This document shows, piece by piece, positions 1 to 19,446 of a DNA stretch of 19,446 nt; position 1 is the first letter of the stretch, and each line of letters begins with the position of its first letter. The DNA lies in the NCBI GenBank assembly GCA_964647245.1, contig CAZYJA010000019.1, positions 1-19,446 on the forward strand, given 5' to 3'. The notes under the pieces are model-generated. The model saw only the letters and a program-made list of their open reading frames with translations, was not told the DNA's origin and did no database searches. The stretch is from an uncultured Syntrophomonas sp. (lineage in GTDB: Bacteria; Bacillota; Syntrophomonadia; Syntrophomonadales; Syntrophomonadaceae). The translations under genes and the position numbers were made by a program.

Positions 1-1125
1 ATAGCGCCTGACAGGGATTGAAACCACTTTTTCAATATCCTCAGTCTTTATGTCGCGGCCGGCCAGACCGTAAACGATATCAATCAGATACGGGCGTTCC
101 TTCAAATCATACAAAGCACTACGGGTCTCGGCAAACAAAGGGCCTCCGTTTGCCGAAAAACCCTCAGACTTATCCATGACGGCTACGGCCCTGGTTTTAG
201 CCAGAGCGCGGGCCAGTTCCTCGCCTGGGAAAGGACGAAACACTCTGATTTTAACAAGACCTGCCTTTACTCCATCCCCCCGCAGTTTATCGACAGCTGC
301 TTTTGCAGTTCCGGCAGTGGATCCGATTAAGACCAGAGCAAACTCCGCATCCTCCATCCTATATTCTTCAAACAAACCATAGCTACGCCCGGAAACCTTT
401 TTAAACTCTGCGGCTACCTCCAGTATGCGGGCCTTAGCCGCCTTCATAGCCTCCGCCTCCTGCACCTTGTGTTCCATATAATAGGGACTCGCATCGTACG
501 GTCCTACCGCAAGCGGATTTTCTTTTTTCAGCAGGTAGTTTGCAGGGTTATATTCCCCGATAAACTTGCGCACAGCATCCGTCTCCAAAAGCTCTATATT
601 CTCTACGGCATGACTGGTAATAAAGCCATCCATACAGGCCATCACCGGTAAGCGTACGCTTAGGTGTTCACCGATCGGCATGGCCATGAGAATATTATCA
701 TAGGCTTCCTGATTGTTTTCCGCATAGATTTGGATCCAGCCGCTGTCACGAGCGCCCATCGAGTCGGAGTGGTCGTTATTGATGTTAATTGGCCCCGTAA
801 GAGTGCGGTTGACGCAAGCCAAGGTAATCGGCATCCGGCATGAAGCCGCCACGTATAAAAGCTCATACATCAGTGCCAGGCCACAGGCAGAAGTAGCACA
901 GACAGACCTGGCTCCGGCAGCTTGCGCAGCAATACATACGGACATTGAACTATGCTCTGACTCCACAGTAACATATTCGGTATTAACCTCACCATTGGCC
1001 ACATACTGAGCAAAGTATTCCGGAATTTCAGTGGAGGGAGTGATAGGGAAAGCGCCCATGACATCAGGATTTAACTGTTTGAGGGCAATAGCTACAGCCT
1101 CGTTGCCGGAAAGGGGCTTACTCAT
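1..1125 (-). CDS. porA: Pyruvate/2-oxoacid:ferredoxin oxidoreductase alpha subunit (PorA/VorA-like). The N-terminal ~375 codons are present and the gene continues past the window start.
   Basis: The reverse-strand reading frame stays open from the ATG at 1125 to position 1. The translation begins MSKPLSGNEAVAIALKQLNPDVMGAFPITPSTEIPEYFAQYVANGEVNTEYVTVESEHS, which is a typical POR alpha N-terminus. A GGAGGTGAGG ribosome-binding site lies upstream. The gene is absent from the ORF track only because no stop codon falls inside the window. Confidence 0.9.
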   Translation of the reverse strand, partial: MSKPLSGNEAVAIALKQLNPDVMGAFPITPSTEIPEYFAQYVANGEVNTEYVTVESEHSSMSVCIAAQAAGARSVCATSACGLALMYELLYVAASCRMPITLACVNRTLTGPININNDHSDSMGARDSGWIQIYAENNQEAYDNILMAMPIGEHLSVRLPVMACMDGFITSHAVENIELLETDAVRKFIGEYNPANYLLKKENPLAVGPYDASPYYMEHKVQEAEAMKAAKARILEVAAEFKKVSGRSYGLFEEYRMEDAEFALVLIGSTAGTAKAAVDKLRGDGVKAGLVKIRVFRPFPGEELARALAKTRAVAVMDKSEGFSANGGPLFAETRSALYDLKERPYLIDIVYGLAGRDIKTEDIEKVVSIPVRRY

Positions 1126-1429
1126 TGACCTCACCTCCTGCCACCATTGTTATTGCAGGGAAAGGACACACATCCTCACATATGCCGCAGCCCTTACAGT
1201 ACATATAATCGAAGTCCAGGCGTTTCCCGTCCTTTACCGGTATCGCACTGTCCGGACAGAAGGGAACACAAAGCATACAATGTTTACAAGCTTCTTCGTG
1301 AAAAATGGGTGTGTTGGTCCGCCAAGTACCGGTATTAAAAGCCCGCGCGGTTCCCGGTTCGTAGATTTCCCCGCCGGGAGTCAAATCCTGCCAAGGGGTA
1401 TTTTCGTTAATATCCTTCGCATAAATCAT
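1118..1429 (-). CDS. porD: 2-oxoacid:ferredoxin oxidoreductase delta subunit (a 2x[4Fe-4S] ferredoxin).
   Basis: The 103-aa product carries two CxxCxxCxxxCP motifs (CKHCMLCVPFCP and CKGCGICEDVCP). Its start overlaps the end of the gamma subunit gene in an ATGA arrangement, and its stop lies 5 nt before the alpha subunit start. Confidence 0.9.
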   Translation of the reverse strand: MIYAKDINENTPWQDLTPGGEIYEPGTARAFNTGTWRTNTPIFHEEACKHCMLCVPFCPDSAIPVKDGKRLDFDYMYCKGCGICEDVCPFPAITMVAGGEVNE

Positions 1430-2028
1430 CCTAGCTGCACCTCCGCCATGGAATTTTTCAGCGCTGCCATGTTGCCCGCAATAACATGGGGCTTGGAAGC
1501 AAATTTGTGTTTATAGGAATCTTCGATATCCACTAAAAAACGCTCACTTTCCAAAACGCCGCTCACCTTAACTACCGCAGCCAGCATCGGAGTATTGGGT
1601 AAATTCTTGCCCAAACTCTCTTCCGAAATGCGGCGGGCATCGATAGTACAAACTTTTCCGCTCCATCCCTCCAGTTTTGAACGCATCTCCTGAGGAGAGC
1701 GAGGAGTGTTAATGATTATCGCGCCGCCCTCTTTCAGTCCGCCGGTAACGTCGACGCTGTCCAGCAAAGTTTCATCAACCACAACTACATAGTCCGGATA
1801 GTAAATATTGGAATGGACTGTACACCGTGTTTCACTAATGCGATTATAAGCCGTAATCGGGGCTCCCATACGTTCCGGTCCATACTCCGGGAATCCCTGC
1901 ACAAATTTCCCTTCTAAACCGGCCACATCCGCCAGCAGCAGGCAGGCCATCTTGGCTCCTTGTCCGCCCCGGCCGTGCCAACGAATTTCTACCATATCAT
2001 TGGTTGCCACTCTTATTCCTCCCATCAT
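1426..2028 (-). CDS. porG: 2-oxoacid:ferredoxin oxidoreductase gamma subunit. The true start may be the GTG at 2009.
   Basis: The 200-aa product contains the conserved gamma-subunit block MVEIRWHGRGGQGA. A GGGAGGAA ribosome-binding site is placed to serve either the ATG at 2028 or the GTG at 2009. Whether this is a pyruvate, ketoisovalerate or other 2-oxoacid enzyme cannot be decided from sequence alone. Confidence 0.88.
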   Translation of the reverse strand: MMGGIRVATNDMVEIRWHGRGGQGAKMACLLLADVAGLEGKFVQGFPEYGPERMGAPITAYNRISETRCTVHSNIYYPDYVVVVDETLLDSVDVTGGLKEGGAIIINTPRSPQEMRSKLEGWSGKVCTIDARRISEESLGKNLPNTPMLAAVVKVSGVLESERFLVDIEDSYKHKFASKPHVIAGNMAALKNSMAEVQLG

Positions 2029-2183
2029 TATAATTTAAAAAATAAAGAAAACCGGCTTGCGCCGCAACCTTAATTGCGAACGAGAGAGAGCATCAGTAGT
2101 ACCCGAAGGGTGAGCCATTAACAACGGCGAAAGTCTGGTTGCACTTATACTATCCACCTTAAAGGTTATATTGCTGATAGTAT

Positions 2184-2440
2184 AAAAAAAGCTTTCGTCC
2201 CAAAAAGGGACGAAAGCTCGAAAGACATTCGCTGTACCACCCATTAATTCAAAGCATACCATCATATGCGTTCCCTGTTACGGGGGAACCCGTCGGAGCC
2301 TACTGGATTACTCGTTCGGTCCGCAGCTCAGGAGTGATTTTCGGGTTCAGACTACTAGTACCGGGCTTACACCTTCCCCGGCTCGCTGTAACGTTCGGCT
2401 GAAACGTACTCTCTCCGTCAATGCCTTTGTAATTTGAAAT
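2184..2440 (-). promoter_or_regulatory. Candidate T-box riboswitch leader (tRNA-responsive transcription antitermination) upstream of the por/vor operon.
   Basis: On the minus strand there is an AGAGAG/AGUA-containing 5' region at ~2400-2420 that could be the base of Stem I. Further 3' lie AGUAGUCUGAAC, a Stem III hairpin GTTCCCCCGTAACAGGGAAC (2269-2290), and an F-box-like CCGUAA. The T-box motif AAUUAAUGGGUGGUACAGCG (2230-2249) is a close match to the consensus AAUUAGGGUGGNACCGCG. Its 3' part overlaps the 5' arm of a terminator hairpin GCUUUCGUCCC-UUUUU-GGGACGAAAGC (2191-2217), which is followed by U7. Confidence 0.6.
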
Positions 2441-2448
2441 TATAAATA

Positions 2449-2477
2449 AATATAACCACTTGCCTGGGTTTTGTCAA
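2449..2477 (-). promoter_or_regulatory. Sigma-A-type promoter TTGACA-17-TATATT that would drive the T-box leader and the por operon.
   Basis: On the minus strand TTGACA lies at 2477-2472, followed by a 17-nt spacer and TATATT at 2454-2449. That placement fits the inferred leader start near 2440. Confidence 0.5.
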
Positions 2478-2699
2478 TCACAAATCCAGGAAACAAGGGA
2501 ACTGATTCCGTTGCTAGCTTGGCATATAAATATTCTATAGTTTCACCTCATAGATTTTCATCCTCCACTGCTTTTTAACAAAGCTTATTTACCGCACTTT
2601 GCTTGCCCGCAAAAAGGGCAGATAATAAAAAAGTATACTTTGCCCGAAATTACAGTGTATATTATTTTATAACGAGATCTAGGAAGGGGATTTGTTCCG

Positions 2700-3806
2700 A
2701 TGGGGCACTTGATTCATTCTAAAGATGAAGTCTACCGGGCATTGGCCGAACGTTTAAACAGAGAGCCAATAGGAGCTCCCTTAGACGATACCCTCATGAC
2801 AATTCTGCAAAGACTTTATACTGAAAGCGAAGCGGTTATCGGCAGCAAATTCCCTTTGGTGCCGATAAAACTCGAAAGAATCGCCAAAATTACCGGTACT
2901 GATGTCGAACAGCTAAAACCAATTCTGGATAGTATGGCCGACAAAGGTTTGGTAATGGACTTTCCTCGCCGGGACACCGCCTTATACATGCTGGCACCCA
3001 TGGTTATTGGCTTTTTCGAATACACCTTCATGCGGGTACGCAACGAACTAGATATGCCAGAGCTGGCCCAACTTTTCAATAGTTATTTTCATAATGAAAG
3101 GGTTAGAAAAGAGTTCTCCGGTATAGATACCCGGATGATGCGAACCTTGGTATATGAGCACCTAATCCCGGTAGCGGTAGAAACTGAGGTTTTAACCTAT
3201 GAAAGAGCTAGTGAGATTATCCGCCAGGCCGGTGGTGGAGCACTTTCCATGTGTGCTTGCCGCCATAAAGCGAGTCACCTGGGCCAAGCCTGCGACGCCC
3301 CGCTGGAGGTATGTACTTCCTTAGGCACTGCTGCCGAGTGGGTTATACGGAGAGGAATGGGCCGCCCTGCTACGGTGGATGAATTGCTGGAGGTACTTGA
3401 TACAACCGAGGAATTGGGGCTAGTCCATAACTGCGATAATATCCTGAATAATCCCACCTATATATGCCATTGCTGCGGTTGCTGCTGCGTAGTGATGACT
3501 GGTATAAGTCAACATGGACAATATGCTACCCATCCGAGTAATTTTATCCCGGTATTAAATCAAGAACTATGTATTGGCTGCGGTATTTGCGCTGATAGCT
3601 GCCTTATTGCTGCCATTACCATGCCGGAGAATACGGAAATTGAATTTCCCGAAATTAATAAAGCTAGCTGCATCGGTTGCGGGGTCTGTGTATCAACCTG
3701 TCCCAATGACTCTTTAACCCTGGCCCGCAGGTCTGTCCTGCACGTCCCTCCAACCAATGCCAATGACAAGTTCAGACGAATCGCCTCAGAGAAGGGCAGA
3801 ATCTAG
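2700..3806 (+). CDS. Uncharacterised 4Fe-4S dicluster-domain protein of 368 aa.
   Basis: The C-terminal region has two ferredoxin motifs, CIGCGICADSC and CIGCGVCVSTCP, plus an unusual Cys cluster CHCCGCCC and CAC/CDAPLEVC. A GGAAGGGGA ribosome-binding site lies 8 nt upstream of the ATG. The gene is transcribed divergently from the por leader. Confidence 0.75.
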   Translation: MGHLIHSKDEVYRALAERLNREPIGAPLDDTLMTILQRLYTESEAVIGSKFPLVPIKLERIAKITGTDVEQLKPILDSMADKGLVMDFPRRDTALYMLAPMVIGFFEYTFMRVRNELDMPELAQLFNSYFHNERVRKEFSGIDTRMMRTLVYEHLIPVAVETEVLTYERASEIIRQAGGGALSMCACRHKASHLGQACDAPLEVCTSLGTAAEWVIRRGMGRPATVDELLEVLDTTEELGLVHNCDNILNNPTYICHCCGCCCVVMTGISQHGQYATHPSNFIPVLNQELCIGCGICADSCLIAAITMPENTEIEFPEINKASCIGCGVCVSTCPNDSLTLARRSVLHVPPTNANDKFRRIASEKGRI

Positions 3807-5927: not shown

Positions 5928-6863
5928 CTATTCTACTGCACTATCCCAAAGAAGTTCTGCAGCTACAAACAGGCCGATATATTCACCCATTTTTTCATCA
6001 GAAATAGTAGCATTTCCTGCATTGACTGCATCTATCATCTCTGCCATGGCCATGAAAGCATCAGTATAGGCAGCCATGGCGAAGGCAATATTCTTATGAG
6101 CCTCCAGGTAGTCGTTCGGTACCATAGGTGCTATTTCTATCATCGCATCAACAGATACAGTTGATGCCGCATATACATTTGCAAAGGCGTCAATCCACTC
6201 TTTCGAACCATCGTAATCTGCAAGCAGCTCATCAGTTGCGGCAATCATTTTTGTGTAATCAGTTACAAGGGGTCCCATAATCTTTTGGTACTGTTCATTT
6301 GTCAGCTTGTTATTGGCTGGAACAGATGTAGAAGGTGCAGCATAAGAAATGGAAGTATCTATACCAACTGTACTGCTGGCTGCATCCCAGGTAACGCCGA
6401 TATCGAAAAGCTGTGCAACATCACGAAGTTTGAAAAAATTGTTGCTGTTGATTGTGTAAGCAGTTAGATTTACTGCGCTTCCGTCCTTATATATTTTAGA
6501 CGTGCTAAGTGTAGCTGACTTTGCCAAGCCGTCACCCTTATTTAGCTCACCACCTACGACAGTATAAGCTCTACTGGAAACAAGGTTAATTGCATTTTTA
6601 GAACCATCCCAAGTAACCTCAAATTGTTTTCCGCTGCCTGATACAACCTTCGCAAGATCACGCAGCTTAAAATAGTTGCTATTTTCAATTGTATATGCAT
6701 CAAACGAAATTACATTTCCATTCACAATGACCTTTGAGGCAGTAGGTGTTGCAGCTTTAGTAGTTGCTGCAAATGCTGGGGTTACAAAAATACTAACCAT
6801 TAATGTTATCATTACAAAAAACGAAAATACTTTAGTGCTCATACTCTTGTTTACAAAACTCAT
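5928..6863 (-). CDS. Secreted 311-aa protein with two tandem copper-amine-oxidase N-terminal-like repeats and a helical C-terminal domain.
   Basis: It has a signal peptide ending AFA and an AAGGAGG ribosome-binding site. Two ~45-aa repeats are present: VIVNGNVISFDAYTIENSNYFKLRDLAKV... and IYKDGSAVNLTAYTINSNNFFKLRDVAQL.... Confidence 0.75.
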   Translation of the reverse strand: MSFVNKSMSTKVFSFFVMITLMVSIFVTPAFAATTKAATPTASKVIVNGNVISFDAYTIENSNYFKLRDLAKVVSGSGKQFEVTWDGSKNAINLVSSRAYTVVGGELNKGDGLAKSATLSTSKIYKDGSAVNLTAYTINSNNFFKLRDVAQLFDIGVTWDAASSTVGIDTSISYAAPSTSVPANNKLTNEQYQKIMGPLVTDYTKMIAATDELLADYDGSKEWIDAFANVYAASTVSVDAMIEIAPMVPNDYLEAHKNIAFAMAAYTDAFMAMAEMIDAVNAGNATISDEKMGEYIGLFVAAELLWDSAVE

Positions 6864-6967: not shown

Positions 6968-7207
6968 TTATTTATCCATCTCCTTCCCATGGCTTCGGTT
7001 TAGGGGAAACCTGCACACGCTGTGGGTCCGATGCTCACTGATATTTTTCCTGAAATCCGAATGCTTGCAGTACCAGCACTCCCGCATGGGGGCCAGGCTG
7101 TCGCTTGCTGCACATTCCCAGTGAGAGCAGGTATCGTCTTCCCTCACCACTGGATAGGTATCGTCGGTCTTATCCCTGTCCTTTGGCCGCATATTTCCTT
7201 TATCCAA
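6968..7207 (-). CDS. Small hydrophilic Cys-rich protein of 79 aa (TTG start), carrying C-x4-C...C-x2-C motifs and an additional Cys-x-x-x-His motif. It is a paralog of the 12921..13160 ORF.
   Basis: A GGGAAGGAGTGG ribosome-binding site lies 9 nt before the TTG. The ORF is conserved in the second copy, with 65 of 79 residues identical. Its reality is uncertain because the opposite strand also carries an open 74-aa ORF in both copies. Confidence 0.35.
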   Translation of the reverse strand: MDKGNMRPKDRDKTDDTYPVVREDDTCSHWECAASDSLAPMRECWYCKHSDFRKNISEHRTHSVCRFPLNRSHGKEMDK

Positions 7208-7288
7208 CTGCAGCCACTCCTTCCCTGCAAATCCATATACCGTTAATTCTAATATTCAAAAGTTTAATACAAATAGAATCGCCTGGTA

Positions 7289-7366
7289 ATAAATCTGCAC
7301 GAAATGTCGCTTGTGGGTTATGAAATGTAATTTCCAGTAATTTTTTGTAATTCCTGTGGTATAATG
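7289..7366 (+). promoter_or_regulatory. LytTR-box promoter cassette made of ACGAAATGT-N12-ATGAAATGT followed by the extended -10 TGGTATAAT.
   Basis: The 9-mers lie at 7289-7297 and 7310-7318, 21 bp apart. TGGTATAAT lies at 7358-7366. A GAGGTGA ribosome-binding site and the ATG at 7402 follow. Confidence 0.65.
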
Positions 7367-7401
7367 GATGGGATTTGAGGGGATGACTTTGAGGTGACAT
7401 A

Positions 7402-7924
7402 ATGAAAATCGCTATTTGCGATGACGACAAGGGGGACTTTTACATAAAATTATTTTTTTGACTTCATCCTCAATTTGCGGTAGATTCTTATTCTGTGGGT
7501 GCATTTAACTATTATTAAAACCCATTCAAAAAGACCCACTCTTTTCCGTTTTAAAAAAAGCCTGCAAGCATATTTTTTAAGCGGACTGAAGCAATATATC
7601 GTCGTCAAAACGCCCAGCAGCCTTTCTAAGTTCTTCCTCAACGAGCTGATCTAGGTTGAAGTAAGGGGCAGAACCGTGTGCTTTTATCAAAAAGGCGGGA
7701 GCACGTTAGAAAGTACCAGTACGATTTCTCAAGTTGAAGCTGTTTTATTAATCGATAAACGTTTCATTCCGGATCGCTCCGATATCGAAAACCTTGATTA
7801 TATAAAGAGCCTTTCTCATGATGGCCTTACAACCACCAGCAATCGATTTATACCTATATCAAGCAAGGTTTTCAAAAAAGTAAAGCAGTTGTATATCAAT
7901 CATTCCTTTCACGCGGAAGCTTAA
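7402..7924 (+). pseudogene. Disrupted LytTR response regulator.
   Basis: The first 30 nt (MKIAICDDDK) are identical to the intact regulator gene at 13354. Unrelated sequence at 7432-7625 then replaces the receiver domain and hits a stop after 19 codons. From ~7625 the LytTR-domain half resumes in homology with 13785-14082 (FLNELI*VEV...QKGGSTLES...LLIDKRFIP...FIPISSKVFKKVKQLYINH). This half carries an in-frame TAG where the intact copy has TAT. Confidence 0.75.
7468..7496 (+). promoter_or_regulatory. Sigma-A-like promoter TTGACT-17-TAGATT inside the segment that replaced the receiver domain. It could drive the downstream kinase gene.
   Basis: The hexamers and 17-nt spacing were read directly from the sequence. 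No other support exists. Confidence 0.35.
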
Positions 7925-7938
7925 TGGAGGTTAAAATC

Positions 7939-9207
7939 ATGCTGGATTATATTAGGTCTCTGCTTGCCTTTATTTTTGCAATCAGCGTAATGTATATGCT
8001 CTTGGATTGTGAGATCAAGCACCAGAAGAACCGCTATCTATTGGGTTTGTACGTTACTATCCTACTAATCTGTAATGTGCTTGTTTTATATAACTTTGGG
8101 TATATATTCTTCATGAAACTATATCCCCTTCTGGTTCACTTTCCGGTATTCTTGGCCTTTGTTTTTGTATCCCGGTTCAAACCCATCAAGGTCTTTTTTG
8201 TTCTTTGTACACTTATCGCTTTCTCCACGTCGTTTTCTGTGGTTGGACTGATTATTTCATATTTTTTTGGCTCCAGCAGGGAAGTCGTAAACATTGTTTC
8301 CTATATGCTGTTTATACCCACCGGGTTGATCATTTACCAGTATATCCGTCCGTCTTTTCTGTATATGATGCGCAACACCGATAAAGGCTGGTTAGGTTTT
8401 TCCATCGTACCCCTTTCATACTCAGTGCTTATTTATTCTATTGGAATGTATAATTTGGATACAGTGAACATTGGACCTTTATTAAAGAACGCTGTGCTGC
8501 TATTTATTTTGGCTTTTTCAGCTTATTATATGATTATCCGTTTTTTTAAACAGACCCAAGAACAGCTCACCCTGCAAACTGAACAGGATTTGTTGATAAA
8601 GCAAGCTACCGCAGCCCAGCACCAGTTGGCAGCATTGCAAGAATCACAAGAAATGACCATTATTTATCGCCACGATATGCGACACCATCTAAATCTAATC
8701 AGTGCCTATCTTGCAGAAAACAACCCGGCAGCAGCCCAAAACTATATTAACGAAGTTGAAAAAACCATTGCCAGTGCTGTGGTTGAAAAATATTGCAGCA
8801 ACTATACCGTCAATTTAATACTATATTTCTATATTGCGAAGGCCAAGGATGCACTGATTGCAGTTGAAACCCAAATCGATCTCCGGGAGCAAAACCCGGT
8901 ATCCGATATGGACCTTTGCGTTATCTTTGCAAATGCCCTGGAAAATGCGATGAATGCCTGCCAGCGTATTCCTAACGCCAATGATAGATGCTTAAAAATC
9001 TTCTGCCAAACCAAAAGTGATAAGCTCTTCATCCAAATTGCCAATAGCTACACCGGCACGGTCACGTTTGATGACGACATGCCGGTAAGCACGGAAGAAA
9101 ATCACGGCTTGGGCACGAAAAGCATTGCCGCGGTAGCACATAAATACGACGGTTTATTTTCTTTCACGGCCGAAGATGGGATCTTCAAGACCAATATAAT
9201 CCTGTAA
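7939..9207 (+). CDS. HPK10 (AgrC/ComD-like) sensor histidine kinase with a 6-7 TM N-terminal domain and a C-terminal GHKL ATPase.
   Basis: Multiple hydrophobic helices occupy the first ~200 aa. The H-box is YRHDMRHHLN, the N-box is VIFANALENAMNA, and the G-box is GLGTKSI. A GGAGG ribosome-binding site lies 8 nt before the ATG at 7939. The ORF track instead begins at the in-frame ATG at 7924, which overlaps the pseudogene stop. Confidence 0.85.
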   Translation: MLDYIRSLLAFIFAISVMYMLLDCEIKHQKNRYLLGLYVTILLICNVLVLYNFGYIFFMKLYPLLVHFPVFLAFVFVSRFKPIKVFFVLCTLIAFSTSFSVVGLIISYFFGSSREVVNIVSYMLFIPTGLIIYQYIRPSFLYMMRNTDKGWLGFSIVPLSYSVLIYSIGMYNLDTVNIGPLLKNAVLLFILAFSAYYMIIRFFKQTQEQLTLQTEQDLLIKQATAAQHQLAALQESQEMTIIYRHDMRHHLNLISAYLAENNPAAAQNYINEVEKTIASAVVEKYCSNYTVNLILYFYIAKAKDALIAVETQIDLREQNPVSDMDLCVIFANALENAMNACQRIPNANDRCLKIFCQTKSDKLFIQIANSYTGTVTFDDDMPVSTEENHGLGTKSIAAVAHKYDGLFSFTAEDGIFKTNIIL

Positions 9208-9486: not shown

Positions 9487-9612
9487 AAAGGGGTTTCAGT
9501 TCTAAGTCTGAAACCCCTCGGTATTTCGGTTATAGCGGATTTTTCTAGTCTTATTGCTTATTTTAATGAGTTTATCACTACATCTATTTGGGCAGCTAGA
9601 TCAACATTAAAT
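9487..9612. repeat. Copy B of the ~126-bp repeat. In this copy it forms the genuine 3' end and terminator of the 9558..10397 gene.
   Basis: It matches 3847-3972. The hairpin at 9489-9516 is followed on the minus strand by a T-rich tract. Confidence 0.8.
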
Positions 9613-10397
9613 GATGCTTCAGGGGTAGCGAAAGCGCCAGCATAGATGCCTGCGTCTAATAATTTATAAGCGTAAACAATGACCATCCCGTCTTCCTTGT
9701 AGATAACAACCGCGGTAAAACCTTTAACAAATGTTTTCAACGAGTCTTTATTGGCATACTCCTTCAAGAATTCTTCTGCAAATTCATTAAAATTACTTGC
9801 GTCGGTACCTTCACCTTTGTCAGTTACGCCGACTTGGACTTGACATGATCCCGGGGCAGATATTTTGACTCCTTCAATTACTTCTTCATCAACTACCCAA
9901 TCAGCGGGCAGGACCATCTCAAAAGCTTTATCCAGGCTAAAATATTTTTTCATCGAAATAGCAATTGCCCGGGTAGTCGCTTCATAGTCTACTTTGGCAC
10001 CAAGATTTTCGCTGATGAATCTTAGGGGAACATAGGTGCTTCCATTAATTAATTGAGCCGGCACCTGAACTTCCCTCTGGGTGCCATTAATGACTGCATA
10101 GTTCTGTCCGATTGGTACCTCGATGGTTTGGTCGACCAGTACCACTGTTGCCGTACGCGTATCATTATTCCACAGAACCTCACACCCAAAAGCCTCACTG
10201 ATAAACCTCAGGGGAACCAGGGTTCTTCCCTCAACTACTTGGGCTGGAGCAGACATGGTAACGCTTTGGTCATTAATCTGGGCCTGACTCTCCCCAATCA
10301 CCAGATTAACACTTCTGTCCCTTACTTCAGCACTGGCGGTGCCTGCAAGGATAAGAACCAATGATAAAGTAATTAAAAATAATAATGATTTCTTCAC
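9558..10397 (-). CDS. Secreted 279-aa protein with two copper-amine-oxidase N-terminal-like domains. It uses a GTG start.
   Basis: It has a signal peptide ending ASA. The motifs EGRTLVPLRFISEAFGCEVLW and NGSTYVPLRFISENLGAKVDY are present. An AAAGGGG ribosome-binding site lies 9 nt before the GTG. Confidence 0.75.
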   Translation of the reverse strand: MKKSLLFLITLSLVLILAGTASAEVRDRSVNLVIGESQAQINDQSVTMSAPAQVVEGRTLVPLRFISEAFGCEVLWNNDTRTATVVLVDQTIEVPIGQNYAVINGTQREVQVPAQLINGSTYVPLRFISENLGAKVDYEATTRAIAISMKKYFSLDKAFEMVLPADWVVDEEVIEGVKISAPGSCQVQVGVTDKGEGTDASNFNEFAEEFLKEYANKDSLKTFVKGFTAVVIYKEDGMVIVYAYKLLDAGIYAGAFATPEASFNVDLAAQIDVVINSLK

Positions 10398-13353: not shown

Positions 13354-14082
13354 ATGAAAATCGCTATTTGCGATGACGACAAGCCGGAACTGTTACGCAT
13401 CAGTCGGCTGGCACATGAATATTTGAGCTCCGGCTTTACCGAAAGCCTACCGGAAATCCACAGCTTTGAAAGCAGTCTGAAGTTGCTCGAACAGCTGGAA
13501 AGCGGCATACATTTTGATCTTTTTCTTTTGGATGTCATAATGCCTAACCTAAACGGCATCCAGCTGGCCAACGAGATAAGAAAAATGGATGAGGTAGCCA
13601 AAATTATATTTTTGACTTCAAGCTCGGAATTTGCGGTAGAGTCTTATTCAGTGGGCGCTTTTAATTATCTTATAAAGCCTATTCAAAGACCCCAACTCTT
13701 CTCTGTTTTAGAAAAAGCCGGCAACGATATTATAAGTGACCTGAAACAATTTATCGTGGTTAAAACCCCCAGCACCTTGTCCAAGGTATTCCTCCACGAG
13801 CTGATCTATGTTGAGGTGATTGGCAGAACCGTATGTTTTCATCAAAAAGGCGGGGCTAGGGTGGAAAGCATCATTACGATTTCTCAAGTTAAAGCTGCTT
13901 TATTAATAGATAAACGTTTTATCCAGCCTCATCGCTCCTATATCGTCAACTTAGACTATGTCCAAAAACTATCCCCGGATGGCTTTACAACGAAAGACGG
14001 CCAGTTTATTCCCATATCAAGAAATGTTTTCAAAGAAGTAAAACAGGCCTATATCAATCATTGCTTTCGGTCGGAAGGTTAA
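13354..14082 (+). CDS. LytTR-family response regulator (AgrA/ComE-like) of 242 aa.
   Basis: An N-terminal receiver domain is present (MKIAICDDD...DVIMP...IIFLTS). A C-terminal LytTR DNA-binding domain is present (VKT.S....F..ELIYVE......VCFHQKGG...I...RS.IVN). Confidence 0.9.
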   Translation: MKIAICDDDKPELLRISRLAHEYLSSGFTESLPEIHSFESSLKLLEQLESGIHFDLFLLDVIMPNLNGIQLANEIRKMDEVAKIIFLTSSSEFAVESYSVGAFNYLIKPIQRPQLFSVLEKAGNDIISDLKQFIVVKTPSTLSKVFLHELIYVEVIGRTVCFHQKGGARVESIITISQVKAALLIDKRFIQPHRSYIVNLDYVQKLSPDGFTTKDGQFIPISRNVFKEVKQAYINHCFRSEG

Positions 14083-14203: not shown

Positions 14204-14980
14204 TTACCCTTTAGCGTTGAGATATATACTGGGATTGATATCTCTGATATCGCAGGCGGTTTCAAACAAGCTTATATTTACTTGATTTCTAAAATAGGTT
14301 GACATTTGATGATTTAAGTCTTGCTTCAGTCTATCCAAATCAGGATCTGCATAGCCATCCACCAATTCCCACCAGCGTGCAATTAACGATACAACCTTAT
14401 CCTGCTCCGTATCGGTTAAATCCAACCAGCTTTGAGTCCTAAATCTTAAAACATAACTGATTTCTTCGTTGGTGATCGGTATCGTTTCGCCTATGCCTTC
14501 GCCAATTTGATTATTTATATAAGCAGGAGAGAAAAGATATACATCACCATTGTCAACATTATAGTCAACCTTATAACCAATAGCCTCGGAAATAAATCTT
14601 AACGGAACCAAGGTCCGGCCATTAATAATTACGGGAGGAGAGTCCAGCTCATACTCGATCCCAACTCGGTCATTAAGCATGGCATCAAATTTGGAATAGT
14701 TGGCTGTCTTATTTCCGATTTGCATTTCAATAATAAGCCCATTGCTGGCAGGGTCGTAAATTTCAACCTGTTGTTGATCAGCTATCCATTCAACCCGGCA
14801 GCCAACCATTTCAGCAATCGCCCTAACTGGAACCATGGTTCTTTGGTTAATAATCTGTGGTGCAACTTCGGTCTTTACTTCCTCCAAGTCAACCAAAATC
14901 TGGGCGGCCAAGCTTGGGCTGGCGAAACAAAAAGTCAGAACCCATACCAGAGTTACCATAAGTATTGCTTTCTTGCTCAT
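14204..14980 (-). CDS. Secreted 258-aa protein with two copper-amine-oxidase N-terminal-like domains.
   Basis: It has a signal peptide ending LAAQ. The motifs NQRTMVPVRAIAEMVGCRVEW and NGRTLVPLRFISEAIGYKVDY are present. A GGAGGAGG ribosome-binding site is present. Confidence 0.75.
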   Translation of the reverse strand: MSKKAILMVTLVWVLTFCFASPSLAAQILVDLEEVKTEVAPQIINQRTMVPVRAIAEMVGCRVEWIADQQQVEIYDPASNGLIIEMQIGNKTANYSKFDAMLNDRVGIEYELDSPPVIINGRTLVPLRFISEAIGYKVDYNVDNGDVYLFSPAYINNQIGEGIGETIPITNEEISYVLRFRTQSWLDLTDTEQDKVVSLIARWWELVDGYADPDLDRLKQDLNHQMSTYFRNQVNISLFETACDIRDINPSIYLNAKG

Positions 14981-15278: not shown

Positions 15279-17666
15279 ATGAAAAAAAGTATTTCGATTA
15301 TGGTTTTAGTGTTATCCCTTTTTTTCGCCGGTAGCTGCGCGTATGCTGCTGAGGGTGGCGTATATCTGGAAGAAGCGCAAGCGCTTAAGCAGATGGGTTT
15401 ATTTAGGGGCTCCGACCAGGGCTTTGAGCTGGAAAGAGCACCCTCCCGAGTTGAGGCGGCAGTTATGCTGATCAGAATTCTCGGCCAGGAAGAAATTGCG
15501 CTGTCAGCTCATTATTCCCACCCATTCAATGATGTACCCGCCTGGGCCAATGATTATATCGGTTATATGTATGAAAGTAATTTATCCAAGGGTATTTCCG
15601 CCACCGAATTTGGCTCCGCCCAGCTAACCTCTGCTAATCAATATGCTACCTATATTCTGCGAGCATTAGGTTACAGCGATCAGGAAGGCGATTTCATATG
15701 GAGCGAAGCCCTAAATAAATCCCTGTCCATAGGCTTTCTTACCGAAACTGATCTAGCTAATCTAAATCAAGCCAATAAATTATTTGTGAGAGATGATATG
15801 GTGCACCTATCCTATACCGCTCTGGCCAATAAATTAAAAGGCCAGACGATTACCCTACAGGATAAGCTGGCTCAGGAAGGGGTGTTTGATAAAGCCGCCT
15901 ATACCATCATGATGTATTTAAATGGATCTGATTTAGAGAGTCTAAATGGTATGGCAACCTCCGATTTGAATGAAATTCTGGGCGCGGATTTCTCCCATCA
16001 GGATATAAATATGATTATTCAAACTGGCGGCACTGCCCAGTGGCAGAATAATGTAATTCCAGCCCACCAGCTCGCTCGCTGGGCAGTAACTGACAATGGC
16101 TTGGAGCTATTGCAGGAATTACCTCTGGCCAGCATTGGTGATAGTAAAACCTTAACTGATTTTATCGACTTTGCCATTAATAATTACCCCGCTCAAAAGT
16201 ATGGGCTGATTTTCTGGAACCATGGAGGAGGATCAGTATCTGGCTATGGAGTAGATGAACTATTTAATTATGATGGCTTAAGCTTAAAGGAACTAGATAT
16301 TGCGTTTGAAAACTCGCGGCTAAATACTAACCAGCTGGAATTTTTGGGATTCGATGCCTGCTTAATGGGGAATTTGGAAACCGCCAATATCGCCAAAGAT
16401 TACGCCAGCTACCTGATAGCCTCGGAGGAACTTGAGCCGGGCTATGGTTGGGATTATGATTATTTTCTTACCCGGCTGGGCCGTAATCCTGGCATGGATG
16501 GTAAAGAACTAGGGGCAAACATTGTGGATGGCTTCATCTCTTTTTATCAAAACAATGGCATGGCCGATGAAGCAACTACCCTTTCGGTTATCGATTTAAA
16601 AAAGGTACCGGCAGTAGTAAATGCTCTGGAAAGCTTTATTGATGTGGTTGATATCTCGGCAGCAAATTTCGCCACCTTATCTAAACCAAGGTCGAAGACC
16701 AAGGAATTTGGTATGCCCTCGGCCCATGGTGGCTGTACCGATATGGTTGACATGGTGGACTTAGCGAAACAATTCCAAAGTGTTATTCCGGCACCGTCAG
16801 CTAATTTGGTTAAGGCTATAAACGAGGCCGTCATATACAACCGCATGGGAGATTATGTTGACAAAGCCGGCGGGCTTTCTATGTACTTCCCCTACTCAGC
16901 CAAGGATGAAGTGGGGGATCGTATTCCAGTTTATCAAACAACCGGATTTTCTCCTAAATATATTGATTATGTAACCGAATATGCTAATCTGCTAACCGGC
17001 ACTAGCTTAATATCTTTTGATTTGTCTTCTGATATGCCGGAACAATCGGACGAGAGCTTTAGCATATCATTGTCTCAGGAAGAGCTGGATAACATTGGTC
17101 AAATCAATTTTACTGCCTGGGTTAAGGATGATGAGAACTTCTATACCCAGATTTTACAGGACAGCTATGTGGAAATCGATGAATATGGCACGATAGTAAC
17201 CGAGTTTAACGGTCAGATCACCACCATTAATGGAGAATGGGCTTGTCTTTATGAACTTGATCGCGGTGAAGATTATGTCCGCTATGGGGTGCCCGCCTAT
17301 TTGAATGACGCAGAAGTAAATATCGTACTGCTCTATGATAATGAAAATCCAAACGGCCTGATCGTCGGTGCTATGCCGGTCTATGATGAAATAACCGGAA
17401 TGGCTCCCAAGAGCATGATTGATTTCCAGACCGGGGACCGCATTACGATGCTTTATTACACCAGTAAATTCGTGGATGTGAATGATGACACTGAAGCCAC
17501 TGAGGAAGACTTTTATTGGTATGAAGGAAACACCTTTACCCTAGGTGAAGAACTAACCTTGGAAACCTGGGAGGTTGAGGATGGAACCTATCTATACGGG
17601 TTTACAGTTGTAGATTTGCAGGGCAATGAATATTATACCGATTTTATTGAGGTAGCTTACGAATAA
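15279..17666 (+). CDS. Secreted clostripain-family (C11) cysteine peptidase of 795 aa with up to three N-terminal SLH (S-layer homology) repeats.
   Basis: A signal peptide is present. Three ~55-aa SLH-like repeats occupy residues ~25-190. The catalytic His lies in LIFWNHGGGSVSGYG and the catalytic Cys lies in LGFDACLMGNLE. A long beta-rich C-terminal region follows. Confidence 0.8.
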   Translation: MKKSISIMVLVLSLFFAGSCAYAAEGGVYLEEAQALKQMGLFRGSDQGFELERAPSRVEAAVMLIRILGQEEIALSAHYSHPFNDVPAWANDYIGYMYESNLSKGISATEFGSAQLTSANQYATYILRALGYSDQEGDFIWSEALNKSLSIGFLTETDLANLNQANKLFVRDDMVHLSYTALANKLKGQTITLQDKLAQEGVFDKAAYTIMMYLNGSDLESLNGMATSDLNEILGADFSHQDINMIIQTGGTAQWQNNVIPAHQLARWAVTDNGLELLQELPLASIGDSKTLTDFIDFAINNYPAQKYGLIFWNHGGGSVSGYGVDELFNYDGLSLKELDIAFENSRLNTNQLEFLGFDACLMGNLETANIAKDYASYLIASEELEPGYGWDYDYFLTRLGRNPGMDGKELGANIVDGFISFYQNNGMADEATTLSVIDLKKVPAVVNALESFIDVVDISAANFATLSKPRSKTKEFGMPSAHGGCTDMVDMVDLAKQFQSVIPAPSANLVKAINEAVIYNRMGDYVDKAGGLSMYFPYSAKDEVGDRIPVYQTTGFSPKYIDYVTEYANLLTGTSLISFDLSSDMPEQSDESFSISLSQEELDNIGQINFTAWVKDDENFYTQILQDSYVEIDEYGTIVTEFNGQITTINGEWACLYELDRGEDYVRYGVPAYLNDAEVNIVLLYDNENPNGLIVGAMPVYDEITGMAPKSMIDFQTGDRITMLYYTSKFVDVNDDTEATEEDFYWYEGNTFTLGEELTLETWEVEDGTYLYGFTVVDLQGNEYYTDFIEVAYE

Positions 17667-17896: not shown

Positions 17897-19446
17897 TTAA
17901 TAATGAAGGCATTTTTTCTGTCGTATTCGCCACCCATACACAATACCAATAAATAGCGAGAAAAGAATTAGTCCCCAGGCAGGGTGAAATATGATAAACA
18001 CCGCCAATATCAGCGGGCTCAGCAATGTTCTTACCACTAGCTTCAGGAACTCACTATCAGCGATAAAACGGGCTAAGGGCGGTGAGTTGTGATAATAGAA
18101 ATTTACAAATGATCGACCCCATGAATTGGTGAGCAAGAACTGATCTCGGAACTGGCGCAGAAGTACTACCGGTTGTTGGTAGATTGAGCCGTATGCGGCA
18201 GTCGCGATAAAGCATTCGTCTATTGCTATTGCCTCAGCAATAATTATATCTAGTTGTTTGGATATATAATTACCGTCACTGTCGAGCAAGCCAATGGTAA
18301 CGGTAAATGTTCCGGCCTCACTTGGCACACCATAGATCACCCCTGTTGCCTCATTAATACTTAAGCCCGGTGGAAGATTAACTGCATTCCAGGTCCCATC
18401 ATCATCCCAGGGGATCATTCCACCTTGGGATTCCAATGTATGACAATAGCCGGTGTTTACCGTCCCTTGGGGCAAGCTGGGAGAATCAATATTTAACGGT
18501 TCAAGTATGTAGAAAAACAAACTATGCGAGACCGTCTTTAGATCTCCTGGTAAATGTACCGTTACTCTTATTCTAAATTCCCCTGCATCTGCTGTTGTCC
18601 CACTGATAAAGCCCGTGGTTTCATTGATGCTATACCCATTGGGCAAACCCTCTGCACTCCAAACAAAGGAGGTATCATCATAGGCATTACCCGCTTCAAA
18701 CTGGGCCCCCGGATATTCCTGGCCAATGAACCCGTTAGGTATTGACTGCGTGATAATATGGGCAAAGTCAGGATAACAATCCAGGGTATACTGTTTTTCA
18801 TCATACTTACCTGCAGCATCGGTGGCTTTAATTATTAAAGAGCATGGCTGAGGTTGAACCCCAATTCTGATTACCCCCTGCAGTACCCCCGTGACAGGAT
18901 CAAAAGCCAACCCATCGGGCAAGCTGGTTGATTCACTGGAATTCTGCCAATAGGCGGTATAGCTCCAGGTATAGGGCTCCTGTCCTCCTGCAGCGGTCAT
19001 AGCGGCTGTATAAGCTTGATTAGCTTCTCCATAATAAACTGGCGGCAGTTCTGTGGTAGTGATATTTACCTGGCGAACTGTTAACGTAAGGTTAACTGGA
19101 GTTGTTATTCCCATACTATCTTGTACAATTATAGAAACCGGATAGGTTCCTGCGCTGAGCGTAGTTCCGCTAATGTCCCCGGTAGAATCATTTAGAATTA
19201 ACCCTTCCGGAAGCCCCAACCCACTCCATGAATACATGGGTTTGCCGCCATCTGCTTTCAGTATAATACTATAGGGCGATGATACGTAAGCTATAGGAAG
19301 TTCTGTTGTCATAATTCTCAGCGGTTTATAAGCATTGAGCCTTAAAGATACGGTCTTTTGGGCAACTGAGCTCGCACTGTCAGTGACGGTAACATTAATA
19401 GAAAACTCACCGGTTTCAATCGGTATCCCGCTAATTGCCCCAGTGG
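17897..19446 (-). CDS. Cell-surface protein with tandem putative Ig-like (He_PIG/cadherin-like) repeats, a conserved CFIATAAYGS motif and a C-terminal TM helix. Its 5' end lies outside the window.
   Basis: At least 5 repeats of the pattern LP.G(L/Y)S(I/L)...TG.ISG(T/V)....G.(Y/F) are present. The frame stays open from 19312 to the window end, where the translation reads ...TGAISGIPIETGEFSINVTVTD.... The C-terminus reads CFIATAAYGS...NFYYH followed by a hydrophobic helix and RIRQKK. Confidence 0.75.
   Translation of the reverse strand, partial: TGAISGIPIETGEFSINVTVTDSASSVAQKTVSLRLNAYKPLRIMTTELPIAYVSSPYSIILKADGGKPMYSWSGLGLPEGLILNDSTGDISGTTLSAGTYPVSIIVQDSMGITTPVNLTLTVRQVNITTTELPPVYYGEANQAYTAAMTAAGGQEPYTWSYTAYWQNSSESTSLPDGLAFDPVTGVLQGVIRIGVQPQPCSLIIKATDAAGKYDEKQYTLDCYPDFAHIITQSIPNGFIGQEYPGAQFEAGNAYDDTSFVWSAEGLPNGYSINETTGFISGTTADAGEFRIRVTVHLPGDLKTVSHSLFFYILEPLNIDSPSLPQGTVNTGYCHTLESQGGMIPWDDDGTWNAVNLPPGLSINEATGVIYGVPSEAGTFTVTIGLLDSDGNYISKQLDIIIAEAIAIDECFIATAAYGSIYQQPVVLLRQFRDQFLLTNSWGRSFVNFYYHNSPPLARFIADSEFLKLVVRTLLSPLILAVFIIFHPAWGLILFSLFIGIVYGWRIRQKKCLHY

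Follow-up and report, generated by a model that had tools for sequence, protein, structure and literature searches.

The class-I T-box riboswitches of Firmicutes, such as the leaders of tyrS, ileS and ilv-leu in Bacillus subtilis, share an architecture of Stem I, Stem II, Stem IIA/B, Stem III, a UGGN bulge and a terminator, and their targets are aminoacyl-tRNA synthetase, ilv/leu or transporter genes. T-boxes normally gate amino-acid-specific functions. A leader with the same architecture was found on the minus strand of contig CAZYJA010000019.1 (assembly GCA_964647245.1, uncultured Syntrophomonas sp.), a stretch of 19,446 nucleotides (nt) that was analyzed at its full length and is referred to below as the window. 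Unlike the described class-I leaders, this one lies upstream of a cassette encoding a ferredoxin-dependent 2-oxoacid oxidoreductase, and the T-box core of its family reads UGGUA(U/C)AGCG rather than UGGNACCGCG. The class-II ileS T-boxes of Actinobacteria also sense tRNA-Ile, but they have an ultrashort Stem I without distal platform and act on ribosome binding, whereas in the window leader Stem I is complete and an intrinsic terminator is present. We conclude that the leader is a canonical class-I, transcription-attenuating T-box riboswitch for tRNA-Ile, and that it very probably governs the oxidoreductase cassette. The RNA itself is an ordinary T-box; the unusual part is its target. In our literature search no T-box linked to a 2-oxoacid:ferredoxin oxidoreductase was found, with a mention in the surveys of Vitreschak 2008 and Gutierrez-Preciado 2009 not excluded.

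A preliminary description of this DNA, made from the letters alone, had proposed that a T-box leader controls a 2-oxoacid:ferredoxin oxidoreductase operon on the same strand. This proposal is supported by a covariance match, by the terminator/antiterminator alternative and by conservation of the leader in 74 of 78 genomes. When the strand was read over 1900-2800, the leader elements that had been listed (T-box motif, hairpin, terminator and promoter) were all present at the given place on the minus strand. The anatomy of the leader, obtained by transferring the alignment to RF00230, the Rfam T-box family, to window coordinates, is as follows.

2477-2449, minus strand: sigma-70-type promoter, with -35 box TTGACA (2477-2472), 17-nt spacer and -10 box TATATT (2454-2449); 11 of 12 consensus positions match
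2430-2203, minus strand: T-box leader, full-length RF00230 match to the covariance model
2424-2326, minus strand: Stem I, with basal GC/GC pairs, K-turn, Specifier Loop, AG bulge and distal loop
2422-2417, minus strand: K-turn region AUUGAC (Rfam alignment)
2414-2407, minus strand: AGAGAGUA (strand reading)
2412-2407, minus strand: AGAGUA, 5' side of the Specifier Loop (Rfam alignment)
2390-2383, minus strand: AG bulge UACAGCGA, aligned to the consensus AGAGA motif
2382-2360, minus strand: distal hairpin GCCGGG-GAAGGUGUAAG-CCCGGU, the "apical hairpin" of the preliminary description
2376-2366, minus strand: distal loop of Stem I, GAAGGUGUAAG, aligned to the consensus GGUGNRA motif
2342-2335, minus strand: GAAAAUCA, the 3' side of the Specifier Loop; the CUCC that comes next pairs with GGAG
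2338-2336, minus strand: specifier codon AUC (isoleucine) in the Specifier Loop, followed by the conserved purine A2335
2324-2294, minus strand: Stem II (CGGA-CC / GG-C-UCCG) with the GAAC...AGUA loop motifs (Rfam alignment)
2292-2281, minus strand: Stem IIA hairpin CGG/CCG with loop GUUCCC
2292-2270, minus strand: IIA/B pseudoknot, GUUCCC with GGGAAC (2275-2270), perfectly complementary in the window
2269-2254, minus strand: Stem III, GCAU-AUGAUGGU-AUGC (Rfam alignment)
2249-2230, minus strand: T-box motif AAUUAAUGGGUGGUACAGCG (strand reading)
2242-2207, minus strand: antiterminator, with GGG/CCC and GCGAA/UUCGU helices around the bulge (Rfam alignment)
2239-2233, minus strand: 7-nt T-box bulge UGGUACA, with UGGU complementary to the tRNA 3' end ACCA
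2219-2189, minus strand: intrinsic terminator GAGCUUUCGUCCC-UUUUU-GGGACGAAAGCUU, with a 13-bp stem and a UUUUU loop
2214-2207, minus strand: 3' strand of the antiterminator, UUCGUCCC, partner of the T-box motif, lying within the 5' arm of the terminator
2190-2184, minus strand: U7 tail of the terminator (pattern scan)

When scanned with an E-value threshold, the leader matched RF00230 from end to end (model positions 1-219 of 219), scoring 91.2 bits in the 801-nt region 1950-2750 (E = 1.8e-20). On the whole window the E-value was 4.3e-19, and RF00230 was the sole RNA family there with E <= 0.05. When gathering thresholds were applied, scanning the whole window against Rfam gave no match of any kind; the gathering score of RF00230 is 93 bits, and the leader lies 1.8 bits below it. 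Going by the E-value, homology to RF00230 is beyond doubt despite this deficit. All the structural features of a T-box that we examined were found in the leader, and it falls short of the curated score cut-off alone. The preliminary description was ready to give up the T-box if no significant RF00230 match was found, and a default Rfam scan would therefore have led to its wrongful rejection. This shortfall recurs among relatives: 16 orthologous loci were scanned, 14 of them with a leader, and one leader (L070, 97 bits) reached the gathering score while 13 stayed below, the deficit being 1-5 bits across the clade. That most leaders lie just under the gathering score is probably due to the family-wide core UGGUA(U/C)AGCG in place of the consensus, and the same deviation probably accounts for the missing bits in the window. 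This T-box clade is largely missed by threshold-based annotation.

The specifier was then read from the Specifier Loop. The codon AUC is invariant in 75 of 75 leaders (73 of 73 regular-expression matches, together with two others reading GAAAAUCAC). The segment around it reads GAA-A-AUC-A in 67 leaders, GAA-G-AUC-A in 3 and GAA-A-AUC-C in 3, and the flanking bases thus vary, A or G before the codon and A or C after it. Two shifted frames were rejected on this variation, AAU (Asn) for its first base, which changes between A and G among orthologues, and UCA (Ser) for its last base, which changes between A and C. Further, TBDB counts back from the 3' end of the bulge and takes positions 2-4 as the specifier (PMC7778990), a rule that gives AUC again. 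The triplets GGU and GUA, which had been pointed out in the apical hairpin, are not the specifier, since this hairpin loop aligns to the distal loop of Stem I in the RF00230 model. In T-boxes, the distal loop of Stem I docks the tRNA elbow, and AUC is the usual isoleucine specifier. Bacterial tRNA-Ile(GAU) has an A73 discriminator, which is compatible with UGGU; the T-box bulge reads UGGUAUA in 66 leaders and UGGUACA in 9. From these sequences, the sensor is predicted to read tRNA-Ile only. The suggested link to branched-chain amino acids is supported in this narrower form, with AUC pointing to tRNA-Ile alone.

A pattern scan found one intrinsic terminator on the strand of the leader. Alone, this terminator folds to -23.2 kcal/mol (z = -7.3 against shuffles), whereas the antiterminator alone folds to only -8.8 kcal/mol; termination is therefore taken as the default, and the antiterminator would need stabilization from outside. 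Since 2214-2207 is common to both, the two structures are mutually exclusive, and the alternative pairing expected of a T-box can indeed form. The preliminary description had the T-box motif itself overlapping the 5' arm of the terminator, which is not the case, as the motif ends 10 nt upstream of the arm.

Pair counts were taken from 73 aligned leaders (alignment A1). The antiterminator-form structure was paired in 90.1% of cells, against 35-52% when the 3' partners were slid by 1-3 columns, and 8 of its pairs change on both sides. Helices 1, 2 and 5 of Stem I were 98.8-100% paired, with 100% in the helices flanking the Specifier Loop and 98.8% in the helix joining the AG bulge and the distal loop. 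Stem II (helix 6) was 99.5% paired and has one pair with changes on both sides; Stem IIA (helix 7) and Stem III (helix 9) were 99.1% and 97.9% paired, respectively, and the IIA/B pseudoknot (helix 8) was 84% paired, its five inner pairs forming nearly always. For the terminator, pairing was 97.9%, with compensatory change in 4 pairs. Given that the leaders are so similar that covariation is limited, we treat these data as consistency and not as independent proof. The minimum free energy fold of the whole leader (z = -1.95) was dominated by the terminator and did not reproduce the T-box fold, as is expected for a structure that depends on tRNA.

To assess how widely the leader is kept, the gamma-subunit protein was searched against one genome per species, and 80 loci (L001-L080) with 79-87% identity were obtained. 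The hosts are mostly Syntrophomonas and other Syntrophomonadaceae, among them S. wolfei subsp. methylbutyratica; the others are Pelotomaculum, Sporotomaculum, Desulfoscipio, Candidatus Formimonas, and metagenome-assembled genomes (MAGs) labelled Desulfitobacteriaceae or Peptococcaceae. Two of the 80 loci were excluded from the leader count for too short an upstream sequence. Among the 78 assessable species genomes, a leader-profile search found a near full-length leader upstream on the same strand in 74, which is the conservation at orthologous loci that the proposal had called for. The window leader scores 320.6 bits (nhmmer), in the middle of the family range, and TTGACAAAAC and the -10 box of its promoter recur in orthologous loci. 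In L001, unrelated sequence stands in place of the leader. In L002 (3640-3870), the loss is confined to the distal part of Stem I, and the short Stem I that is left still shows GAAAAUCA; this aberrant copy alone has lost the distal Stem I as in the class-II ileS T-boxes. In L069 (1240-1390) and L076 (3820-3990), the promoter and terminator are kept and everything from the specifier through Stem III is lost; the contigs of these two relics are labelled Thermodesulfobacteriota / Desulfosudis. Other riboswitches were seen near the cassette, namely a fluoride riboswitch just downstream of it in L070 (8018-8077, plus strand, 52.5 bits) and a c-di-GMP-I riboswitch in L020 (3297-3380, minus strand, 41.2 bits), the latter some 300 nt upstream of the leader and on the other strand.

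In the proposed mechanism, transcription would start at the leader's own promoter, and Stem I would bind tRNA-Ile by its AUC specifier (anticodon GAU) and by contact of its distal platform with the elbow. With uncharged tRNA-Ile, the free ACCA end would pair with UGGU in the bulge, and this pairing would stabilize the weak antiterminator and let RNA polymerase read into the operon. Charged tRNA-Ile could not make this last contact, so that the stabler terminator would form and transcription would stop at U7. Directly observed are the leader's sequence and fold, its specifier, the competing helices and the conserved pairing of leader and operon; by analogy with known T-boxes, isoleucine shortage would switch the operon on.

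The genes downstream of the leader and the sequence between are as follows; L081 and L082 are contigs with an identical delta protein, and the beta gene, which lies outside the window, was seen there and in L007 (TPP_enzyme_C).

2182-2045, minus strand: lineage-specific insert of about 138 nt, between the terminator and the ribosome-binding site (RBS), outside the conserved leader
2010-1426, minus strand: gamma subunit gene, 194 amino acids (aa), with GTG start at 2010 and RBS GGGAGG at 2023-2018
1429-1118, minus strand: delta subunit gene, 103 aa, 2x[4Fe-4S] ferredoxin-like (Pfam Fer4 families)
1125-1, minus strand: alpha subunit gene, truncated at the window edge to 375 of 397 aa, with POR_N and PFOR_II
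L081:12508-13422, plus strand (about 7040-7990 in most of L001-L080): gene 5, 304-312 aa, without a Pfam family

The gamma protein reached 209.4 bits with TIGR02175 PorC_KorC (cut-off 81.1), and its GTG start aligns with the ATG of orthologues; the delta protein reached 102.9 bits with TIGR02179 PorD_KorD (cut-off 60.05). By the domains of gamma, delta, alpha and beta, the product is a four-subunit 2-oxoacid:acceptor oxidoreductase of the pyruvate/2-ketoisovalerate subfamily. In L081, L082 and the genome loci, the full unit has the order gamma-delta-alpha-beta-gene 5, often followed by a small DUF3006 gene, and gene 5 (77-92% identity) comes after the beta gene in essentially every locus that reaches far enough. 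A 76-aa DUF3006 gene was seen 32 nt downstream of gene 5 on the same strand (L081:13455-13685 and L082:5046-5276, both plus strand), and the transcription unit may include it as a sixth gene.

The leader had been described as lying directly upstream of porG. It is indeed upstream on the same strand, but it is not adjacent, as a spacer of 173 nt (2183-2011) intervenes between the U-run and the GTG start. The insert within this spacer is absent from L081 and L082, which are 93.7% identical to the window in the coding region, and no second copy was found in the window or in any fetched locus. Neither insert nor spacer matched an Rfam family, and even at E <= 10 only chance-level matches appeared. 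The insert is predicted to be structured, with GCAACC...GGUUGC pairing followed by UUGCGGCGCAA and a U-rich run, and it ends in an A/T-rich stretch with TATAAT just upstream of the RBS. We also considered whether the spacer holds another riboswitch or an attenuator, and rejected this, as no Rfam match above chance, no conservation and no repeat was found. A 76-aa open reading frame (ORF) at 2035-2265 (minus strand) was likewise rejected as a gene, as it covers the T-box, the terminator and the insert lacking in close relatives.

The insert bears on an alternative in which the T-box of this window no longer controls the operon, an internal promoter within the insert or some other effect of it having uncoupled expression. 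The insert is unique to the lineage of the window, its A/T-rich end carries TATAAT near the RBS, and T-box decay does occur in the family, as the truncated Stem I of L002 and the relics in L069 and L076 show. However, all T-box elements of the window are intact and the nhmmer score of 320.6 bits is mid-family, and scanning the insert for promoters on the minus strand gave none. The spacer from terminator to start ranges from 51 to 280 nt among orthologues, and about 20 other loci have long unrelated spacers behind intact leaders. We therefore regard such an uncoupling as very improbable. As to the longer spacers, those of L009, L022, L030, L054 and L066 (Syntrophomonas; 200-280 nt) share blocks such as ATTGCCATATTTATGGCA, CCCCTTGCGGGTATAGGC and CTAAGGGAACAGATT, which look like small inserted repeat elements unrelated to the insert of the window.

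Next, the enzyme class was considered. With the PorABCD pyruvate synthase (9bt4), the cassette shares the subunits, the gene order gamma-delta-alpha-beta and the Pfam domains POR, Fer4, POR_N, PFOR_II and TPP_enzyme_C, as well as the best hidden Markov model (HMM) and PDB matches and the conserved Thr/Arg/Ile contacts; unlike it, the cassette misses the equivalog cut-offs, has an isoleucine T-box, and always comes with a CbiT-like gene behind it. The ketoisovalerate oxidoreductases (VORs) of Thermococcales and methanogens belong to the same subfamily as pyruvate oxidoreductases (PORs), for which the TIGR02175 and TIGR02179 cut-offs are passed, but VOR models score below POR models for every subunit and far below their own cut-offs. 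In methanogens, "anabolic 2-oxoacid oxidoreductases" have been proposed for use in branched-chain amino-acid synthesis.

In detail, the alpha protein scored 472.7 with PorA_Arch (cut-off 550), and 383.4 with PRK08367 against 324.8 with the VOR model PRK08366 (cut-off 646). The beta protein scored 357.1 with PorB PRK11865 (cut-off 405) against 295.1 with VOR PRK11864 (cut-off 405), and the delta protein 99.2 with PorD_Arch (cut-off 120) against 73.1 with VOR PRK09623 (cut-off 166); for gamma, PorC was the best-scoring model at 174.3 (cut-off 270). POR models thus outscore VOR models for 4 of 4 subunits, and the best-scoring NCBIfam models are those of archaeal pyruvate synthase PorA, PorB, PorC and PorD, with the scores lying below every POR equivalog cut-off and below the VOR cut-offs as well. 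The closest solved structure to alpha is the four-subunit pyruvate:ferredoxin oxidoreductase (PFOR) 9bt4_B (E = 6e-92). Residues aligned to Thr31, Arg114 and Ile123 of D. africanus PFOR, which we take to be the pyruvate-contacting residues, are conserved, and oxalate oxidoreductase differs at the first of them. The HMM scores and pocket residues favour POR over VOR, though not decisively, and the sequence evidence points away from a classical VOR and towards an enzyme for a small unbranched 2-oxoacid. The possibility of a ketoisovalerate oxidoreductase, raised in the preliminary description, was thus not borne out, and no equivalog cut-off was reached for the POR class either.

These data would suit an ordinary anabolic pyruvate synthase (acetyl-CoA + CO2 -> pyruvate), in which the isoleucine T-box would serve as a proxy for shortage of pyruvate-derived amino acids in fatty-acid growers that make all their pyruvate from acetyl-CoA. 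Isoleucine made by the citramalate route consumes two pyruvates (10.1101/614065), which would fit this explanation. So would the archaeal PorA-D models as best NCBIfam matches, the PFOR as nearest solved structure and the conserved PFOR-type substrate contacts; on the other hand, every POR equivalog cut-off is missed, as with the 472.7 against 550 of alpha. Gating by tRNA-Ile alone would moreover starve alanine, valine, leucine and gluconeogenesis when isoleucine is plentiful, T-boxes normally gate amino-acid-specific functions, and the differing genomic context in most genomes suits an accessory function over a core one. We consider a plain pyruvate synthase unlikely.

The explanation nearest to the idea in the preliminary description is that the isoleucine T-box governs a VOR-type enzyme which carboxylates 2-methylbutyryl-CoA to 2-oxo-3-methylvalerate, one transamination from isoleucine, in a salvage of the 2-methylbutyrate abundant in methanogenic habitats. 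Reductive carboxylation of 2-methylbutyrate to isoleucine is classical anaerobe physiology. A specifier for isoleucine alone suits a step that yields the direct keto acid of isoleucine, and one enzyme would be enough, which fits a self-contained cassette in varied genomic contexts; fatty-acid degraders are among the hosts, S. wolfei subsp. methylbutyratica being one. The enzyme itself fits less well, as the VOR scores lie under the POR scores for 4 of 4 subunits and far below the cut-offs, and the visible half of the pocket is PFOR-like. Characterised VORs also accept the keto acids of valine and leucine, and an isoleucine-only sensor would be unexpected for them. This salvage is in our view rather unlikely, if a little less so than a plain pyruvate synthase.

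If the operon is on at isoleucine shortage, the oxidoreductase should therefore run in the carboxylating (anabolic) direction and raise the isoleucine supply. That the cassette serves isoleucine synthesis is, in itself, fairly likely. For the preferred substrate, we tentatively favour propionyl-CoA, which with CO2 and reduced ferredoxin would give 2-oxobutyrate, the committed isoleucine precursor, because the enzyme is pyruvate-like and not branched-chain and the signal is isoleucine alone, not isoleucine, valine and leucine together. Reductive carboxylation of propionyl-CoA to 2-ketobutyrate for isoleucine has been proposed since 1969, with only physiological studies cited, and is among nine listed routes to 2-ketobutyrate (PMC7476758). 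The activity of 2-ketobutyrate:ferredoxin oxidoreductase, or alpha-ketobutyrate synthase, goes back to Buchanan 1969, Monticello 1984 and Eikmanns 1983 (as cited in PMC7476758), and a 2026 engineering study in E. coli gave the role of "alpha-ketobutyrate synthase" to nifJ, a PFOR gene (PMC12879463). Being a ferredoxin-dependent carboxylation that feeds isoleucine, this activity is the best functional fit for an isoleucine-only sensor on a POR-like enzyme; it is known from physiology and enzymology without a defined dedicated gene, and we link the cassette to it by inference. As a whole, an isoleucine T-box heading a POR-like cassette together with a CbiT-like protein, anabolic for isoleucine, is the explanation that we hold to be probable.

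Gene 5 is labelled "precorrin-6B methylase" by databases, and public data contain over 2,700 homologues of it at E <= 1e-5. Its residues from about 119 to 296 are homologous to CbiT and agree with the class-I methyltransferase fold (3e05, E = 4.8e-13; target TM-score 0.73). The NCBIfam CbiT score is 44 against a cut-off of 78.3, and the S-adenosylmethionine (SAM) loop is degenerate, DIGAGSAS being replaced by IIS-G-ES with two deletions. The neighbours of gene 5 are oxidoreductase genes, not cobalamin genes. For the N-terminal segment of about 118 residues no match was found, and the structure model is of low confidence there, the C-domain alone being confident. Judging from these comparisons, gene 5 appears to encode a CbiT-like protein that is a conserved partner of the oxidoreductase.

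The constant linkage of gene 5 allows a further explanation, in which the cassette would spread horizontally as a self-contained module and encode an undescribed isoleucine route, with gene 5 as catalytic partner; for example, butyryl-CoA would be carboxylated to 2-oxovalerate and gene 5 would methylate C3 to give 2-oxo-3-methylvalerate, with the module turned on by uncharged tRNA-Ile. Butyryl-CoA is the central intermediate of Syntrophomonas, and secondary metabolism offers examples of C3-methyltransferases with 2-oxoacid substrates. Such a route is compatible with the near-universal linkage of gene 5, the isoleucine-only sensor and the fatty-acid-oxidising hosts; against it stand the degenerate SAM loop and the cost of SAM methylation in primary metabolism. 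We judge it improbable; gene 5 may have no more than a structural role or one in maturation.

Several points weigh against the explanation that we prefer, an isoleucine T-box on an anabolic POR-like cassette. On the side of the RNA, the leader stays 1.8 bits under the curated Rfam threshold, and its T-box core departs from the consensus, with ACAGCG instead of ACCGCG. With a per-column identity of about 76% among the leaders, covariation is modest and the shuffle controls are only weakly informative. No tRNA-Ile gene was found in the 49 loci scanned for a comparison of anticodon and discriminator, and the 138-nt insert could in principle hold a promoter of its own. On the side of the enzyme, the HMM scores mirror ancestry as much as substrate, with no equivalog cut-off reached; catalytic direction and substrate are wholly inferred, and the universally linked gene 5 is not accounted for.

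The cassette also appears portable. Its proteins are 80-94% identical across host families, and the non-coding leader is about 85% identical; GTDB puts these host families in different classes. When the window is compared with L081, the resemblance breaks off at 2480, just before the -35 box is reached from upstream, and the 4.4-kb upstream flank of the window gave no translated match in any of 82 loci. An upstream flank of at least 500 nt was common to 21 of 1,711 locus pairs, and 59 loci fell into 47 synteny groups. An IS110-family transposase lies upstream of the cassette in L007 (Candidatus Formimonas; 574-1947, minus strand), and the relic leaders of L069 and L076 sit on contigs labelled as non-Firmicutes. 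Taken together, this suggests a single unit of promoter, T-box and five genes that spreads horizontally, although mis-binning of MAGs could be the cause of some of the taxonomic labels.

As for the rest of the window, a divergent gene (2700-3806, plus strand) encodes a 368-aa cysteine-rich protein with a C-terminal 2x[4Fe-4S] ferredoxin domain and a CxxCCGCCC-type motif, its first 280 residues or so being without family assignment. The remaining genes are unrelated to the operon (5928-6863, 9558-10397 and 14204-14980, minus strand; 7924-9207, 13354-14082 and 15279-17666, plus strand; 17897-19312, minus strand). They encode three copper-amine-oxidase-N1-like "stalk" domain proteins, a GHKL histidine kinase and a LytTR-type response regulator, a clostripain-family peptidase, and an Ig-repeat protein with a CFI-box-CTERM domain.

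The specifier of a T-box names the amino acid whose shortage turns the genes on, and it is thereby a pointer to function. Here the pointer falls on a widespread, generically annotated cassette of syntrophic fatty-acid- and propionate-degrading Firmicutes, which are hard to grow and to manipulate genetically. A vague "pyruvate/ketoisovalerate oxidoreductase" thus becomes a testable claim, namely that the cassette would be induced by isoleucine starvation and would carry out a ferredoxin-driven carboxylation to a keto-acid precursor of isoleucine. It would provide a concrete gene candidate for a route to isoleucine that has long been inferred from labelling and enzymology (since 1969).

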